Source: Bdellovibrionia bacterium (GTDB lineage Bacteria; Bdellovibrionota; UBA1018; JBILEK01). From it: DNA of 64,000 nucleotides. The translations under genes and the position numbers were made by a program. The notes under the pieces are model-generated. The model saw only the letters and a list, made by a program, of their open reading frames with translations. It did no database searches and was not told the DNA's origin. The first letter of the stretch is position 1. Every line of letters starts with the position of its first letter. Below are positions 58,529 through 64,000 of this stretch, in pieces. The stretch lies in the NCBI GenBank assembly GCA_044352155.1, contig JBILEK010000003.1, positions 834 to 64,833 on the forward strand. The letters are read 5' to 3'.

Positions 58529-59884
58529 CTAGCGCGGCTCGGTTTTGAGCGAAAGGAAAGATCTTCGCATAATGCGCGCCGCATTAAGGCCAGAAACTCC
58601 CAGCACACCAAGCACAACGACAAGACGCAAAAGCCTGACGCCTGGATCATTCGTAATCATCTGGAGCAGTTCGGGCCAGATCGCGCCGCGCCCGGGAGTT
58701 TGGGTTGTGATCAAAACCAAAACTCCAAACGTAACCGAGAGCGCAAGCGCAATAATCACCCCTACTCGAGCCGCCGCAAAAACGAGCGCACGGACCCCGA
58801 AAAAAGCAAGCAGCGGAAGCGCTCCACACAAGTAGCGTGCTCCCGGCGATCCGCCGGCGTGCCACGCTCCGAACGAGGCATTCATCATGAATAGCAAAAC
58901 AAAGTATGCGAGCGAAAATCTCCAGGCCGCGCGCTCAGGGTTCGAGCCCAATCGAAAGAGTCCCCAAACCAGTCCAAAAAATACGATCGGCTGCGTCCAA
59001 AGTAACCCCCGCTCTAATCCGAACACAAGTCCCCAAATCGCCTCGAACTGCGGAAAGGAGTGAAACACACCGAAAAGTGCTGTGCCGGTGGGAACATCAA
59101 CGAACGCAGGGTTTTGAAATTTCTGAACCAAAATCCAGGGTGACCCAAAGAGCGCAAAGTGGATGGAGCCAATGAACGCAAGCCCAGGCAAAAGCCCTAA
59201 AACCACTTTTCTCCAATCCCAACTTCGTCCGACCATCAGCAGCGCCGGTAGGGCTAAGAGCGCCGAGTAATCCATCGCCACCGCAAACCCAGCGCAAAGA
59301 CCGGCCAGAAGCGGTCGACGCTCCAAAATCGAAAGCAAAACCCCAAGACTTAAAACTGCAACCAGTCCGTGGCCAAACCACGCATTCATCATGAGGGCTG
59401 CAGTGTTTCCAAGCCCCAGGGCCAAAACAAGGGCAATTCGCTCTCCTTCTCGAGCTCTACAGTGATCCCTCAAACGCAAAATCAAAAACCCAAGCGGGAG
59501 AATTTGAAAAATAAGACTCAAAACAAAATTCGCGATGTATCGAATCTGAAACTGCGATTGAACGCTCTCTCCGGCACCAAAAACTTTTTGAATCGCACAG
59601 TACACTGGGATCCCAACGACCACTCCCCCGGGAGCTTTGTTGGAATAAGTGCGCCCATCCGGAGTGCGTGCCCAGTCAATCGTCCAAGCTGCGCGCTCGT
59701 CACGAACGTACTCCGTGATCTCAAGGCTTGCAGAGCGACAAAACGCAGCCATCCCAGCCAGTCGAGAGAGAGGATTGACTCCGACATGAGGCCAAAGAAA
59801 CAGTTGTACGCAAAGCACGCCAGCCAATACCCATGTCGATGGTGCGCCACGGTTGGCGATCGCTCGAATTCCTGTTAGAACCAC
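58529..59884 (-). CDS. Polytopic membrane protein, probable GT-C-type (ArnT/PMT-like or DUF2029-like) glycosyltransferase; true start probably internal
   Basis: About 12 predicted TM helices with periplasmic loops; sits between rmlBAC and a GT2 polyprenyl-phosphate glycosyltransferase. Confidence 0.45.
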
Positions 59885-59887
59885 GGC

Positions 59888-60673
59888 ATGATCTTAGGAA
59901 AAAAGGTGGCCGTTGTCATGCCCGCATACAACGCGGCGAAAACTCTTGAACGTACTCTTGTAGAAATCGATCGCGCAATCGTCGATGAGATCATCCTGGT
60001 CGACGATGCCTCGCGCGACGCTACCGCTGAAATCGCGCGCCGAAACAATCTCAAAACATACGTTCACCCTAAAAACCTCGGCTACGGCGGAAATCAAAAG
60101 ACTTGCTACAGAGCCGCTCTTGACGCGGGTGCCGATATCGTCGTCATGGTGCACCCCGACTACCAGTACACTCCAAAACTGATCCCAGCGATGACCTCGA
60201 TGATCGCCTCAGGTCTTTACGACTGCGTTCTTGGTTCACGGATTTTGGGCAATGGTGCACTCGAGGGCGGGATGCCGGTCTACAAGTACATTTTTAACCG
60301 CTTCCTGACGCTTGCGCAAAACCTGCTGATTGGTCAAAAACTGAGCGAGTACCACACAGGGTATCGAGCATTTTCGCGTACGATCCTTGAAACCTTGCCG
60401 CTCGGCGAGTGCGATGATGACTTTGTATTCGATAACGAGATGCTCGCACTCGTGCATTACCGGGGTTTTCGCATCGGCGAAGTGAGCTGCCCGACCAAGT
60501 ACTTTGACGAGGCATCTTCCATCAATTTTTCGCGCTCCGTAAAGTATGGACTCGGCGTCTTACGTGTGAGCTTGAGCTTTCGCTTGGCCCGACTGGGCTT
60601 TGGGCGCTCTCGTATTTTTTCTGCGCAAGGCCGGACCGTGCGCGATACACCGCTGCGAGCAGAACTAACGTAG
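59888..60673 (+). CDS. Family 2 glycosyltransferase, polyprenyl/dolichyl-phosphate sugar transferase-like (ArnC/DPM1-like)
   Basis: [22 protein letters not shown], DxD-like region, C-terminal amphipathic segment. Confidence 0.75.
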
Positions 60674-60755
60674 CGCGTTGCGTTATTCGCTGAATCGGGG
60701 TTGTCTCAGGGCTTCCGATCCGCTAGTCAGAAGGAGTCCTGCCACTTTTTAAGGA

Positions 60756-60830
60756 TGCCGGTGTAGCTCAGTGGTAGAGCAGCGCTTTCGTAAAGCGCAG
60801 GTCGTCCGTTCAATCCGGATCACCGGCTCC
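60756..60830 (+). tRNA. tRNA-Thr (anticodon CGT)
   Basis: Cloverleaf folded by hand: acceptor GCCGGTG/CACCGGC, D arm GCTC-AGTGGTA-GAGC, anticodon arm GCGCT-TTCGTAA-AGCGC, T arm GTCCG-TTCAATC-CGGAT, discriminator T, encoded CCA. Confidence 0.9.
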
Positions 60831-60877
60831 AGTGGAAGGTCTCTTATCTCCTCTCTTACTCTGTTTTTAATCGAGTT

Positions 60878-61258
60878 TTAGTCGAGACCGCCTGATGCAG
60901 GAGCGAGACGCGGAATCATTTTCCAACGCCTTGCTCTTGTCCGTCGACGAACGCGTCGTCGATCCCCCGTGCGGTTGATCGCCTCAAGCAGAGGATCCAC
61001 GAGCTCCGCAAGCGCGAGATAGAGAGTGGAGGCTGACTTCACGATCTTAAGTCCTCGGTAGCGACCCGCGCGCACAAACAGATGAACAGTGAACACATCT
61101 GCCCCTGCTTTGTGAGGAGAGTTCTCCATCTCAAGTGTCAACTGGATCGGCGAACTGCGTAACGCAGGAAAGCGATCGGCAAGTGCTTTGACTCTCGCTT
61201 CCACTGCTTCGCGAGTGATCGATGAGCTTCGTAAGCCTTTGAAGTGAATTCGAATCAT
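60878..61258 (-). CDS. hpf: Ribosome hibernation promoting factor / RaiA (short HPF)
   Basis: MIRIHFKGLRSSSITREAVEARVKALADRF...VFTVHLFV pattern matches YfiA/HPF family; GGAGG RBS upstream of ATG 61258. Confidence 0.7.
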   Translation of the reverse strand: MIRIHFKGLRSSSITREAVEARVKALADRFPALRSSPIQLTLEMENSPHKAGADVFTVHLFVRAGRYRGLKIVKSASTLYLALAELVDPLLEAINRTGDRRRVRRRTRARRWKMIPRLAPASGGLD

Positions 61259-61592
61259 GTCTCTCTCCCTCCTCCTAAATTTTTTTCCGGAATCGAACTC
61301 TGCCCCGGCAGACACGCTCCTCTCAACTGCTCGAGATGCTGAAGCGGATCGCCCGACACCCAAGGCTCGACTCGCAACAGTGCACTGCCGGTCTTAAAAC
61401 ATGGCGTCGTGACGAACACACTCCATCTCTCTCGAGCGTATCCCGCAGCCGTTGAAAGCACAGAGACAGACAACAAGACCAAGCCAACACCGAACACTCC
61501 CGCAAGAGCCAGCCCTCCAAGGAGCCATGAACGGGCTTTCTTTGACCTCAGGAGGCTTCCTGCGAGAACCAGAAGGATCTTTTTTGCATCTC

Positions 61593-62690
61593 TCATTGCG
61601 CCACCTGCAACTCTAACTCGGCACTCTTTCGAAGTACTGCGAGAATCGAGCGCTGCTCTGGGATTTGGTCGCGCTCAACCACAACCACCTCGCCCCCAGC
61701 GAGCAAAACCTTTTGCGCAAGATCATCTAATACATCGTCATCCTCGTGATCCATATCAAAGGGATGAAGACAGAGCTCGCCTGAGCGAGAATCAATCCGT
61801 CCAAAGAGCTCACGATTTTCTGCCACAACTAAAATCTCAACTTGTTGGCGCACTGCTGCTTGAGCGATTTTCTGAATCCGCGTCTCCACTCTGCGCCCAG
61901 GCTTTGTCACCCGAAGAGAGTCTAAAATCTTTTGCACTCTCAAGCGCGCATGCTCTCGGGCGAAATCCTGGAGACTTTTTTTCAGGGACTCAGCTTCTTT
62001 CTCTCTGAAAACCTGCTCCAACAAAAACACTTCGACCCCACGCCGCTCCTCAGCCCTCAAAAACGCATCACTCAACTCTCCCTGACCTACGACGATTACA
62101 GGCTTACCTTGAAGAGGTAATACGGCACGAATCCATGACCAGATCCAATTAAAATCAATCTCCTCTGAGTTATCGATCGATGCCCCCCCGACCGAGTAGC
62201 CGATGACATCCACGGCCTTAAACGAGCTCGACCCACACACATAGAGATGAGCGGCATCTTTTCCGAGCCCAATCACAACGTAGTCGCGATCGACCTGAAG
62301 CCAGGACAACAGAGGCTTCACATGAAACGTGCTCGCCACATGACAGCCTGGCCGGACTTTAGCTTCGATGGAGAGAATCCTGAAAAACCCTTTCGTGCGA
62401 AAGACTCCCACATTTCCACTCAAACTCGCCAACGCGCTCCCATCACTGAGCAATGCTTCGAGCGGAGCGAGAAACTCCTTCATCTCCCGCTCAGTCATCG
62501 CGGGAATTAACACATCTTTCGCGTCAAAAATCGCGCGATTGAGATCGCCCTTCAAAAGCGCAAGGTCTCCTCGATTCTCAAGATAAATCGTCAAGTGAGT
62601 TTGATTCCCCGATGCCACAATGAAACCAAACGCATTTCTCCAATCCCTCGTCATCAAACATCCTCCTTGTACGCCTTGATCCGAGACCAA
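61593..62690 (-). CDS. eRF1/Pelota-like domain protein (bacterial archaeo-eukaryotic release-factor-like, baeRF-type)
   Basis: N-terminal NAFGFIVASGNQTHL resembles eRF1 domain 2 (KFGFIVMDGQGTLFG); C-terminal VEILVVAENRELFGRI...DDVLDDLAQKVLLAGGEVVVVERDQ...ILAVLR resembles eRF1/Pelota domain 3. Confidence 0.5.
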   Translation of the reverse strand: MVSDQGVQGGCLMTRDWRNAFGFIVASGNQTHLTIYLENRGDLALLKGDLNRAIFDAKDVLIPAMTEREMKEFLAPLEALLSDGSALASLSGNVGVFRTKGFFRILSIEAKVRPGCHVASTFHVKPLLSWLQVDRDYVVIGLGKDAAHLYVCGSSSFKAVDVIGYSVGGASIDNSEEIDFNWIWSWIRAVLPLQGKPVIVVGQGELSDAFLRAEERRGVEVFLLEQVFREKEAESLKKSLQDFAREHARLRVQKILDSLRVTKPGRRVETRIQKIAQAAVRQQVEILVVAENRELFGRIDSRSGELCLHPFDMDHEDDDVLDDLAQKVLLAGGEVVVVERDQIPEQRSILAVLRKSAELELQVAQ

Positions 62691-62762
62691 AGCCTAACGA
62701 CCAGAGGACGCGCGCGAAATTGGATAATTCAGAACTGATGAATCGAAAATTACGAAGAACAA

Positions 62763-63638
62763 CTAACCAAAGCGAAACTCTCGGAAAAGCCTCGACGCAA
62801 CGGGGTTTTCGATCTTTCGACTGGCTGAGACCAAGTAGATCTCCTCAAATACTCCTTCAAGTCTCCCGAGCATCATCAGCTCACCTTTTTTTACGAGATC
62901 CTCAACAGCAAGCTCTGGCACTGGGATCACGCCGATTGCACGCGCACCCAAAATTTTTTGCAAGCTCGTGTCTTGCGTCTCCGCCACCACCTCGGGCTGA
63001 ATACGAAGATCCCTGAAAAACTGATCGATATCTTGCCTGAGCTTACTGTGTACGGTGGGAAGTACAATCGGCTGTGCATCGAGCGACTGAGGAAACCCGC
63101 GTTTTAAGGCCTTATGCTGGGGCGAGGCATAGATCGACACCGGCAAATGTCCAATGGAGCGCACAAAAATTTTTTCTGTCCCAGACACTGAGGGACGATG
63201 ATTTGACATCAGCAGATCGATCCGATGCGAGGTGAGCTCACGCAAAAGCTCTGCATCATGCCCCTCCAAGACCGAGACACTGCAGCGCTGAACTTGATAC
63301 GCCGCCTCTACCCAACGATAGAGCAACTGCTTGGGAATGCTATCGAGCGCTCCAAGTTGGACATGGATCCGCGTGGGCTTTTTTCGATCTTCGAGCGCAT
63401 CCATCATCTCTGAGCCAAGTCGGAAGATCTCTTTGGCGTATTGAAACGCGACCCTCCCCTGCTCATTGAGGATCAGACGCTTATGCTGGCGATCAAAAAG
63501 GGGGATCCCCAGATGCTCTTCGAGTGTTTTAAGCTGGGCTGAGAGCGTCGGCTGACCGAGACGAAGACGCTCGGCGGCCCGTGCAATGCTCCCCTCCTCA
63601 GCAATGACCTTGAAGTAAAGCAAATGATGATAGTTCAC
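62763..63638 (-). CDS. LysR-family transcriptional regulator, NhaR-like (GTG start; ORF track allows 63668)
   Basis: VNYHHLLYFKVIAEEGSIARAAERLRLGQPTLSAQLKTLE matches NhaR N-terminal HTH. Confidence 0.75.
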   Translation of the reverse strand: MNYHHLLYFKVIAEEGSIARAAERLRLGQPTLSAQLKTLEEHLGIPLFDRQHKRLILNEQGRVAFQYAKEIFRLGSEMMDALEDRKKPTRIHVQLGALDSIPKQLLYRWVEAAYQVQRCSVSVLEGHDAELLRELTSHRIDLLMSNHRPSVSGTEKIFVRSIGHLPVSIYASPQHKALKRGFPQSLDAQPIVLPTVHSKLRQDIDQFFRDLRIQPEVVAETQDTSLQKILGARAIGVIPVPELAVEDLVKKGELMMLGRLEGVFEEIYLVSASRKIENPVASRLFREFRFG

Positions 63639-63757
63639 CCAAGGTTCCACAACAGACCTCCCGAACACTTGCGATCGTTATAATTCTATTAAAACGAATC
63701 ATAACAGTATATTTATCGATTTGAGCAAATCAACCCACTCAAGGATACTCACAAACA

Positions 63758-64000
63758 AATGACGGACATGCTTCTTTTTCCCTTTGCAGAATATGCTTGG
63801 CTTTATGGTGCGTTTATCGCGTTTGTGTGTGCGATGCTTGCGTTGGATCTTGGAGTGTTTCATCGCAACGCGCATGTCGTTACCTTTCGGGAGGCGGCGG
63901 GGTGGAGCATATTCTGGGTGAGCTTGTCCTTGTTTCTCAACTACGGGTTCTACGCATACGCACTCCATAAGTTTCAAACCGATCCCGCCTACACTGTGCT
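63758..64000 (+). CDS. TerC-family integral membrane protein (partial, continues past window end)
   Basis: ATG 63758; MTDMLLFPFAEYAWLYGAFIAFVCAMLALDLGVFHR...EAAGWSIFWVSLSLFLNYGF typical TerC/Alx N-terminus. Confidence 0.7.

Follow-up and report, generated by a model that had tools for sequence, protein, structure and literature searches.

A probable ribosome-hibernation operon in Bdellovibrionota with Balon-like, small membrane-protein and raiA/hpf-like genes

Introduction

What does an eRF1-like protein do in a bacterium when its gene lies beside that of a ribosome hibernation factor? The question is raised by a locus near one end of a 64,000-nucleotide stretch of DNA from a Bdellovibrionia bacterium (GenBank assembly GCA_044352155.1, contig JBILEK010000003.1, positions 834 to 64,833 of the forward strand), which was analysed as a whole and is called the window below. 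An initial annotation had placed an eRF1/Pelota-like open reading frame (ORF) here, with an HPF-like gene further on, and had offered three roles at the ribosome for the pair, namely stalled-ribosome rescue, control of hibernation, or a translation-targeting conflict system. Only the second gained support from our analysis. We read the locus as a three-gene, translationally coupled ribosome-hibernation operon, in which a gene for a small membrane protein stands between a Balon-like gene and a raiA/hpf-like gene, and put the probability of this reading at about 0.8. It draws on homology, fold, gene order, translational coupling and neighbourhood conservation, each of which was observed and is documented in the following sections. 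Hibernation is favoured because the closest relatives of the eRF1-like protein are the hibernation factor Balon and its mycobacterial homologues.

The description of bacterial eRF1-like families as mostly uncharacterised is outdated for the family to which Balon belongs (PMC6514570, 2019, for the linkage to HPF; PMC10901736, 2024). Burroughs and Aravind (2019; PMC6514570) defined a baeRF-1 clade with a two-strand insert in the Pelota domain, in which the catalytic Gln is lost and a “persistent operonic association” with HPF is found, and they predicted its members to be non-catalytic inhibitors acting in the ribosomal A site. Balon, for which Psychrobacter urativorans AOC03_06830 is the reference (PDB 8RD8/8RDV/8RDW), was later seen in the A site alongside RaiA and EF-Tu(GDP), whether the ribosome was vacant or translating (Helena-Bueno et al., Nature 2024; PMC10901736). 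About 20% of bacteria have it, with raiA “most frequently” the neighbour of its gene (PMC10901736). Hibernation by Balon and RaiA is thus already explained by published work, and the new detail at this locus is a membrane-protein gene in what had been taken for a leader.

A divergent member of the Balon family

The first gene of the operon (61593..62654, minus strand) encodes a protein of 353 amino acids (aa), which is a divergent member of the Balon family with aeRF1-like N, M and C domains. Neither a NIKS nor a GGQ motif was found on direct reading of the 353-aa sequence, and Pelota loop A is likewise absent from it. Among the models of Pfam and NCBIfam, the only meaningful matches were PF18845 (baeRF_family3; E=2.5e-5, 25.2 bits) and NF052287 (“AOC03_06830 family ribosome hibernation factor”; E=1.2e-17, 64.5 bits). 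The Balon of P. urativorans, taken from chain B of 8RD8, scores 105.5 bits on the former and 502 bits on the latter. A profile built from 36 homologues (alignment A1) matched chain 8rd8_B in the PDB from end to end, with residues 6-357 aligned against 2-368 (E=1e-28), and also matched the mycobacterial Balons Rv2629 and MSMEG_1130 (E~2e-4). When the homologue profile was aligned with Balon by hhalign, the probability was 99.2% (E=7e-20, 349 columns). A single-sequence phmmer search of the PDB with the window protein gave no Balon match; the profile search recovered it. One other likeness, to ribosomal protein uL29 (phmmer E=0.0095 over aa 228-276; Pfam Ribosomal_L29 E=0.009), was rejected, as it corresponds to the long helix 218-248 that links the M and C domains.

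The structural comparison points to the same family. The AlphaFold2 model of the protein has a mean predicted local distance difference test (pLDDT) score of 88.4 and a predicted template-modelling score (pTM) of 0.83. In a Foldseek search of the PDB, ranks 1-5 were all Balon structures (8rdw_B, 8rd8_B, 8rdv_B, 8v9j_z and 8v9l_z), with template-modelling (TM) scores of 0.65-0.70 across the whole chain, and aRF1, eRF1 and Pelota/Dom34 ranked after them with scores of 0.25-0.44. The three-domain eRF1/Pelota-type fold, and with it the assignment of the protein to the eRF1-like or baeRF group, is therefore confirmed by the profiles, the model and Foldseek together. The C-terminal part was also rightly described as similar to eRF1 domain 3, and one orthologue weakly matches the Pfam model eRF1_3. 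The segment FGFIVASGNQTHL, which had been read as eRF1 domain 2, belongs elsewhere: it sits in the N domain, at residues 9-21 of the 353, and the M domain (the eRF1_2 equivalent, covered by PF18845) starts at about residue 120.

The reading frame first reported for this gene, a 365-aa ORF at 61593..62690 on the minus strand, is present in the sequence and is a real gene, and all peptide segments quoted from it were found within it. Its start is most likely the ATG at 62654, however, which gives 353 aa and not 365. An equivalent start is used in all 35 aligned homologues, and an identical protein in a public gene call (P0001) has 353 aa and the ATG at 62654 as its first codon. A Shine-Dalgarno sequence, AAGGAGGA, can be read directly at 62661..62668 (minus strand), 6 nt 5′ of this ATG, and has its counterpart in the GGAGG-N6-ATG seen in related loci. 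The TTG at 62690, from which the 365-aa reading starts, directly touches a conserved -10-like element, so the stretch between this TTG and the ATG at 62654 is probably 5′-untranslated region.

Relatives of the protein were found in metagenome-assembled genomes (MAGs) of Bdellovibrio, Pseudobdellovibrionaceae, Bacteriovoracaceae, Oligoflexus and Silvanigrellaceae, and remoter members of the family in Acidobacteriota, Bacillota, Gemmatimonadota and other phyla. Within the Bdellovibrionota clade, conservation is very strong at two motifs, namely ASTFHVKPLL, which also occurs in the relatives from Acidobacteriota and Bacillota but not in Psychrobacter Balon, and DHEDDDVLDDLAQ. Several Bdellovibrionota genomes carry two Balon-like paralogues, at times in tandem, of which just one is followed by hpf. 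Examples are the loci L020 and L028 of the same MAG (SG_bin7), the tandem pair of L012 (2816-3976 and 3980-5134), and L029 and L065, where the second copy is on the opposite strand. Such genomes agree with the multi-copy pattern that has been reported for Balon.

The RaiA/HPF partner and conservation of the pairing

The last gene of the operon (60878..61258, minus strand) encodes a short S30AE (RaiA/HPF) protein of 126 aa. A co-oriented HPF-like gene had been noted 335 nt onward from the eRF1-like gene, and this was borne out, with its ATG at 61258. The product consists of an S30AE domain and a very basic tail, RRRVRRRTRARR. It aligns with all 88 positions (1-88) of the Pfam model Ribosomal_S30AE (PF02482), with 19.1 bits against a gathering threshold of 23.7, and the S30AE domain was matched by 16/16 aligned orthologues (best E=1.6e-8). 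When a profile of these orthologues was searched against the PDB, the top matches were all HPF, RaiA or PSRP1, and the best, 8rd8_D, is the 126-aa RaiA seen on the P. urativorans ribosome alongside Balon. The window protein is listed as “ribosome-associated translation inhibitor RaiA” by both NCBI and JGI. It has the short HPF form, with a basic tail of ~25 aa after S30AE and no C-terminal dimerisation domain of the kind found in long HPF. It thus shares with RaiA/YfiA-type short HPF (PF02482) a single S30AE domain of ~100 aa and a short C-terminal tail, as well as the 126-aa length of 8rd8_D, and differs from this group in its divergence, which leaves it under the gathering threshold, and in the unusually arginine-rich composition of the tail.

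The pairing of the two genes had been proposed as a property to be checked in other genomes, where its absence would have counted against the annotation. It is conserved across the phylum: hpf lies co-oriented and directly downstream of the Balon-like gene in 46 of the 54 Bdellovibrionota-type loci. The HPF model used is specific to this clade, and the lack of a match in distant loci is accordingly uninformative in either direction.

In the window, hpf ends with a stop codon at 60878 and faces a convergent tRNA-Thr(CGT) gene on the plus strand (60757-60831); no intrinsic terminator was detected between the two. In some relatives, a gene for a CBS-pair protein overlaps the 3′-end of hpf (4296-4772 in L087/L088, 3043-3567 in L047 and 5486-5932 in L054), and in L087 and L088 it is followed by genes for a Na/Ca exchanger and an Mrp-type antiporter. 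No CBS-pair gene is present after hpf in the window. The overlap in relatives recalls the archaeal hibernation factors HibA and AHA, which are fusions of an HPF domain with a CBS module.

A membrane-protein gene in the supposed leader

The interval between the Balon-like gene and hpf had been described as a long leader. It is not non-coding: its 334 nt are exactly filled by an ORF of 113 aa (61255..61596, minus strand), which is joined to both neighbours by ATGA overlaps. At 61596-61593 the ATG of the middle gene overlaps the TGA of the gene upstream, and at 61258-61255 its own TGA overlaps the ATG of hpf. The predicted product is a small single-pass membrane protein with a basic N-terminus, one transmembrane helix and a C-terminal domain in which two cysteines, C66 and C95, are invariant.

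Conservation of the ORF at the protein level extends to 17 other loci (L004 and 16 more). In the closest relative, L004, where the Balon-like protein shares 68% identity with that of the window, the corresponding position is taken by a 93-aa ORF that likewise overlaps both neighbours by 4 nt. The two middle proteins align without a frameshift and have in common the transmembrane helix, an RVEPWVxGDP motif and the two cysteines. Base differences between the two ORFs amount to 0.51, 0.35 and 0.62 at codon positions 1, 2 and 3, respectively, and 24 of the 36 identical residues are encoded by codons with synonymous changes; this pattern argues for coding constraint. In the loci taken from genomes, the distance from the Balon-like gene to hpf shows two modes, -28..+71 nt and ~370-570 nt, and each long gap contains a homologous ORF of 110-160 aa, nearly always with overlaps of -4. 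The family is characterised, after the basic N-terminus and the single transmembrane helix, by the C-terminal motif C-W-x2-A-Q-x-L-L-x-V-x-P-W-L ... L-K-x-A-C-L, in which both cysteines are invariant; a second pair, CxGxxC, is found in many members. The family comprises 287 representative clusters at 50% identity, 206 of them at E<=1e-10. The middle protein had no match in Pfam, the PDB (profile search) or PADLOC, and its AlphaFold2 model is all-helical and of low confidence (pLDDT 65, pTM 0.32).

The distribution of the middle gene on a neighbour-joining tree of the Balon-like proteins is patchy. Since it is found in only ~1/3 of clade loci, the middle protein is regarded as an accessory. By the positive-inside rule, its basic N-terminus is predicted to be cytoplasmic and the domain with the cysteine pair periplasmic. 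Our best guess is that it is a membrane-located accessory or sensor and not a ligand of the ribosome. At least once (L089, 3501-3938), a member of the family occurs without Balon or HPF, beside genes for a CBS-pair protein, a Na/Ca exchanger, a cation ATPase and a LysR-family regulator. Because of these neighbours, the primary association of the family may be with cation homeostasis rather than with ribosomes.

The initial annotation had also drawn attention to a stem-loop, TCTGCC-GG-GGCAGA, in the supposed leader. The structure exists, ~3 nt away from the quoted 61296-61309 (at 61299..61312), but it is not a leader element: on the minus strand it lies inside the middle gene, over the codons for C-L-P-G-Q in the conserved “ACL” motif. 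Perfect 6-bp hairpins occur in the window at a background rate of 0.93 per 334 nt, the z-score of the local fold at this site is +0.51, and L004 has no such stem-loop. It was therefore rejected as a functional element. An Rfam search over 60500-63000 found nothing besides one tRNA-Thr.

Comparison with characterised factors

Much of what defines Balon is also found in the window protein. Both have the full-length, three-domain aeRF1-like architecture, match the same Pfam and NCBIfam models and are without NIKS and GGQ; the C-terminal motif DD..GG(E/K)V is kept, and in both cases the gene adjoins one for a 126-aa RaiA. The beta-hairpin of the C domain, which is the docking site for EF-Tu(GDP) in Balon, is likewise retained, at residues 284-297. 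Its strands are predicted at 284-287 and 294-297, hhalign pairs FGRIDSRSGEL of the window protein with AAKVDEDAQTL of Balon, and G285 and G292 are invariant or nearly so. The two systems differ in that the proteins are merely ~12-15% identical, with the window protein scoring under curated cut-offs, and in the placement of a membrane-protein gene between the Balon-like gene and raiA in the window.

The mycobacterial homologues Msmeg1130/Rv2629 (PDB 8V9J/8V9K/8V9L; NCBIfam NF052288) share the fold (Foldseek TM 0.61-0.70) and a presumed A-site role with the window protein. They differ in their very weak sequence similarity to it (profile E~2e-4, M domain only), in larger insertions of their own in the C domain, and in their hypoxia-response gene contexts; an NCBIfam scan gave no match of NF052288 to the window protein. 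With aeRF1 and Pelota/Dom34, the window protein has in common the organisation into N, M (RNase H-like) and C (Pelota/eRF1_3) domains (Foldseek E 1e-13 to 1e-8). It departs from these proteins in lacking GGQ, NIKS and loop A and in a global TM of at most 0.44, and the partner of its gene is raiA and not a gene for an eRF3-, Hbs1- or ABCE1-type factor.

Several observations weigh against the hibernation reading. The window protein scores under both curated cut-offs, with 25.2 bits against the gathering threshold of 31.5 for PF18845 and 64.5 bits against the equivalog cut-off of 330 for NF052287, and together with its counterpart in L004 it sits on a long branch of the neighbour-joining tree. 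The orthologues P0006 and P0014 exceed the PF18845 threshold (51.6 and 50.3 bits) and stay under the NF052287 equivalog cut-off. Since the window protein is below that cut-off, we treat it as a family-level member and not as an equivalog. Two loops of Balon are also reduced, as detailed below, and the hibernation role of the operon in the Bdellovibrionota lineage is one that we infer from homology and fold.

The first of these loops is in the N domain. The HP motif of Balon is on an “extended loop” of this domain and contacts A1492 and A1913 (PMC10901736); we located it through the single HP dipeptide of Balon and this wording, not through coordinates. Balon and its canonical relatives have THRxxPxxxQDP(I/V)R after the first N-domain strand, and the version in Balon, THREHPANDQDP, contains the sole HP dipeptide of that protein. 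The whole Bdellovibrionota clade has NRGDLxDLK in place of the HP loop, which is shorter and has no His or Pro. In the window protein the loop has become a short NRGDL turn: hhalign aligns THREHPANDQDP with ENRGDLALLKG across a 3-residue gap, and the AlphaFold2 model has ~5 loop residues between the strand at 20-25 and the helix at 31-49.

The second is in the M domain, for which a lasso loop around A2602 and a bL27 trap are described in Balon; it is at the position equivalent to GGQ, where the lasso loop is probably located. This region has 24 residues in four proteins, that of the window and those of its three closest relatives, compared with ~39 in most clade members, ~50 in Balon and 58-66 in the canonical relatives. 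About 14 loop residues remain in the window protein, and pLDDT dips there. The loop reads GYSVGGASIDNSEE in these four proteins. In the window protein, GYSVGGAS(IDN) at residues 153-165 (~62160-62198, minus strand) has a GG at the GGQ site of eRF1, without the Gln, and other clade members do not keep this GG. Catalytic loops of the baeRF-1 families are known to be free to vary in length (PMC6514570). From the overall geometry of the model, occupation of the A site by the window protein is plausible.

Hibernation and the competing explanations

If the operon works as its counterparts in P. urativorans and mycobacteria do (PMC10901736), the Balon-like protein would occupy the ribosomal A site under stress or in non-growing cells, independently of mRNA. 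RaiA would fill the path of mRNA and tRNA on the 30S subunit, and EF-Tu(GDP) would dock on the beta-hairpin of the C domain. The three together would silence and protect the ribosomes. From synteny and the intergenic block described below, expression would be expected from a promoter of the operon's own, downstream of an NhaR-like LysR-family regulator.

The reduced loops and the extra gene could instead mean that the protein is a neofunctionalised derivative of Balon, which no longer plugs the A site in the classic manner and works with the membrane protein, for instance in tethering hibernating ribosomes to the membrane or in coupling hibernation to an envelope or ionic signal. The loop at the decoding centre is lost and that near the peptidyl-transferase centre mostly so, and the middle gene, with its translational coupling, is found again in about one third of clade loci, with further family members beside CBS, Na/Ca-exchanger and LysR genes where there is no Balon-like gene. 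There is also a precedent in YqjD, ElaB and YgaM, which are C-tail-anchored membrane hibernation factors (bioRxiv 10.1101/2024.08.16.608256). The middle protein resembles them, by analogy only, as a small single-pass membrane protein in a hibernation context with a basic cytoplasmic N-terminus. It differs from them in that no sequence or family relation was found (no Pfam match), in that its transmembrane helix is near the N-terminus and is not a C-terminal tail anchor after a long cytoplasmic (DUF883-type) domain, and in that most of it, including the domain with the cysteine pair, is predicted to be extracytoplasmic, with a cytoplasmic part of only ~25 residues. Two thirds of the clade loci lack the middle gene and have the same short HP-region, which indicates that the gene is not needed for function. 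The free variation of catalytic-loop length in baeRF-1 families (PMC6514570) and the Balon-like overall geometry of the three domains also speak against a changed mechanism, and we consider neofunctionalisation unlikely.

A Pelota/Dom34-like rescue factor or an active release factor would enter stalled A sites in order to split ribosomes or hydrolyse peptidyl-tRNA. The aeRF1/Pelota-type fold would suit this, relief of stalled ribosomes without catalysis was considered for baeRF-1 by Burroughs and Aravind (PMC6514570), and the loop GYSVGGAS of the window protein and its three closest relatives lies at the GGQ position. That loop contains neither GGQ nor a Gln, however, and its GG is limited to four sequences. 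Catalysis in release or rescue is disfavoured because there is no GGQ or NIKS motif, and Pelota loop A is missing too. No gene for an Hbs1- or ABCE1-like GTPase/ATPase is linked to the locus, the structural similarity to Balon (TM 0.65-0.70) far exceeds that to Pelota and eRF1 (<=0.44), and the gene is consistently coupled to that of RaiA, which locks ribosomes rather than recycling them. Taken together, these points leave a rescue or release function quite improbable.

A mobile conflict or defence module, shutting down ribosomes on phage attack or countering ribosome-targeting toxins, is highly improbable: baeRF-1 pathways have been proposed to arise in response to conflict effectors (Burroughs and Aravind, PMC6514570) and lateral transfer spreads the family as a whole, but PADLOC matched 0 of 4 proteins, which leaves a conflict system unsupported, no toxin, nuclease or mobile-element genes are adjacent, and the stable chromosomal synteny across clade MAGs is housekeeping-like and unlike that of a defence island.

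The hibernation reading agrees with the core of the initial annotation, whose call of an eRF1-like protein beside an HPF gene, made from sequence only, was sound; such a pair is best read as a ribosome-hibernation module. It extends the Balon family and its linkage to RaiA into Bdellovibrionota, in which the attack phase is long and non-replicating and the preservation of ribosomes should matter. As a natural “minimal” Balon, with no HP loop and a short loop at the GGQ position, the protein also tests which contacts are really needed for A-site occupancy. The loop-reduced Balon, the inserted membrane-protein gene and the NhaR-like regulator upstream are variations that leave the known mechanism standing.

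Upstream regulator and genomic neighbourhood

Immediately upstream of the Balon-like gene, and co-oriented with it, is a gene for a LysR-family regulator (62763..63650, minus strand) with the Pfam domains HTH_1 and LysR_substrate. The best of the 55 LysR-type NCBIfam models for its product is NhaR (NF008284), with 156.4 bits against an equivalog cut-off of 219, and since the best model is not reached at its cut-off, the regulator is called NhaR-like only. A highly conserved NhaR-like lysR is found co-oriented 40-220 nt upstream in ~36 Bdellovibrionota-type loci, and in many of these loci terC lies divergently beyond it. In the window, the first 242 nt of terC (63759..64000, plus strand) are divergent from lysR and run off the window end. 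The order terC, lysR, Balon-like gene, hpf is kept in MAGs of Bdellovibrio, Pseudobdellovibrionaceae, Bacteriovoracaceae and Oligoflexus, and in relatives a gene for an M48 peptidase is found beyond terC. With terC and the M48 peptidase gene, and with the genes for a Na/Ca exchanger, an Mrp antiporter and a cation ATPase in relatives, the gene content suggests that the operon is probably situated in a neighbourhood concerned with cation or alkaline stress. It is perhaps controlled by the NhaR-like regulator in response to such stress.

One possible meaning of this arrangement is that Bdellovibrionota have a stripped-down Balon lineage, without the HP loop for the decoding centre and, in the sub-lineage of the window, without most of the loop near the peptidyl-transferase centre. 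In about one third of genomes it would be co-translated with a hitherto undescribed small membrane protein that has a periplasmic cysteine-pair domain, and under an NhaR-like regulator the module would form a signal-coupled variant of Balon/RaiA hibernation. We regard this as doubtful. If the middle protein did tie the envelope, ionic or redox state to hibernation, or did tether ribosomes, the variant would be new, and it could plausibly serve the non-growing attack phase of predatory bacteria.

The intergenic region between lysR and the Balon-like gene contains an operator- and promoter-like block (62691..62745, minus strand) that reads CGAT-N14-TTATCCAATTT-N17-CGTTAGGCT. In a comparison of 34 intergenic regions, the clade consensus of the block, with fixed spacing, was GCGATAC-N11-TTTTATCYATTTTAACAAT-N14-CCGTAAAGT. 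Its conservation extends across the phylum (intergenic regions of L005-L060). We infer that it is a LysR operator together with a promoter. The block resembles a LysR dyad (GATA...TATC) and a promoter of the form TTAACA-N16-TAAAGT. A simple sigma-70 scan gave no promoter match in the window, and terminator-like matches were no commoner there than in shuffled sequence. The CCGTAA part of the block was also likened to the FliA -10 element in the attack-phase consensus of B. bacteriovorus, TTAAG-N16-CCGATA. A FliA (attack-phase) promoter is not claimed: CCGTAAAGT is like the CCGATA -10 of B. bacteriovorus, but it is separated from TTAAC by 14 nt instead of 16.

In related loci, the block is followed by a hairpin of variable sequence and then by GGAGG-N6-ATG. 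The hairpin is ~8-35 nt 3′ of the -10-like motif, close to where the operon mRNA is predicted to begin, and is conserved in position and variable in sequence (L007-L060). Across 27 loci, the mean per-sequence minimum free energy (MFE) z-score was -2.8, with values below -1 in 25 of them. On a MAFFT alignment, RNAalifold gave no consensus structure and a column-wise count of pairs was no better than in shuffles, so that the support for the hairpin is confined to the per-sequence MFE z-scores. In the window the corresponding hairpin is weak (UUGGUC-UCG-GAUCAA, 62675-62689, z=+0.86). The 5′ hairpin may serve as a stabiliser of a dormancy transcript.

Further along the window, a polytopic membrane ORF of 451 aa without a Pfam match (58529-59884, minus strand) lies between a gene for a GT2 glycosyltransferase and genes for dTDP-sugar epimerase/dehydratase-type enzymes. 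It probably belongs to a cluster for cell-surface polysaccharide and has no connection with the Balon-like locus.

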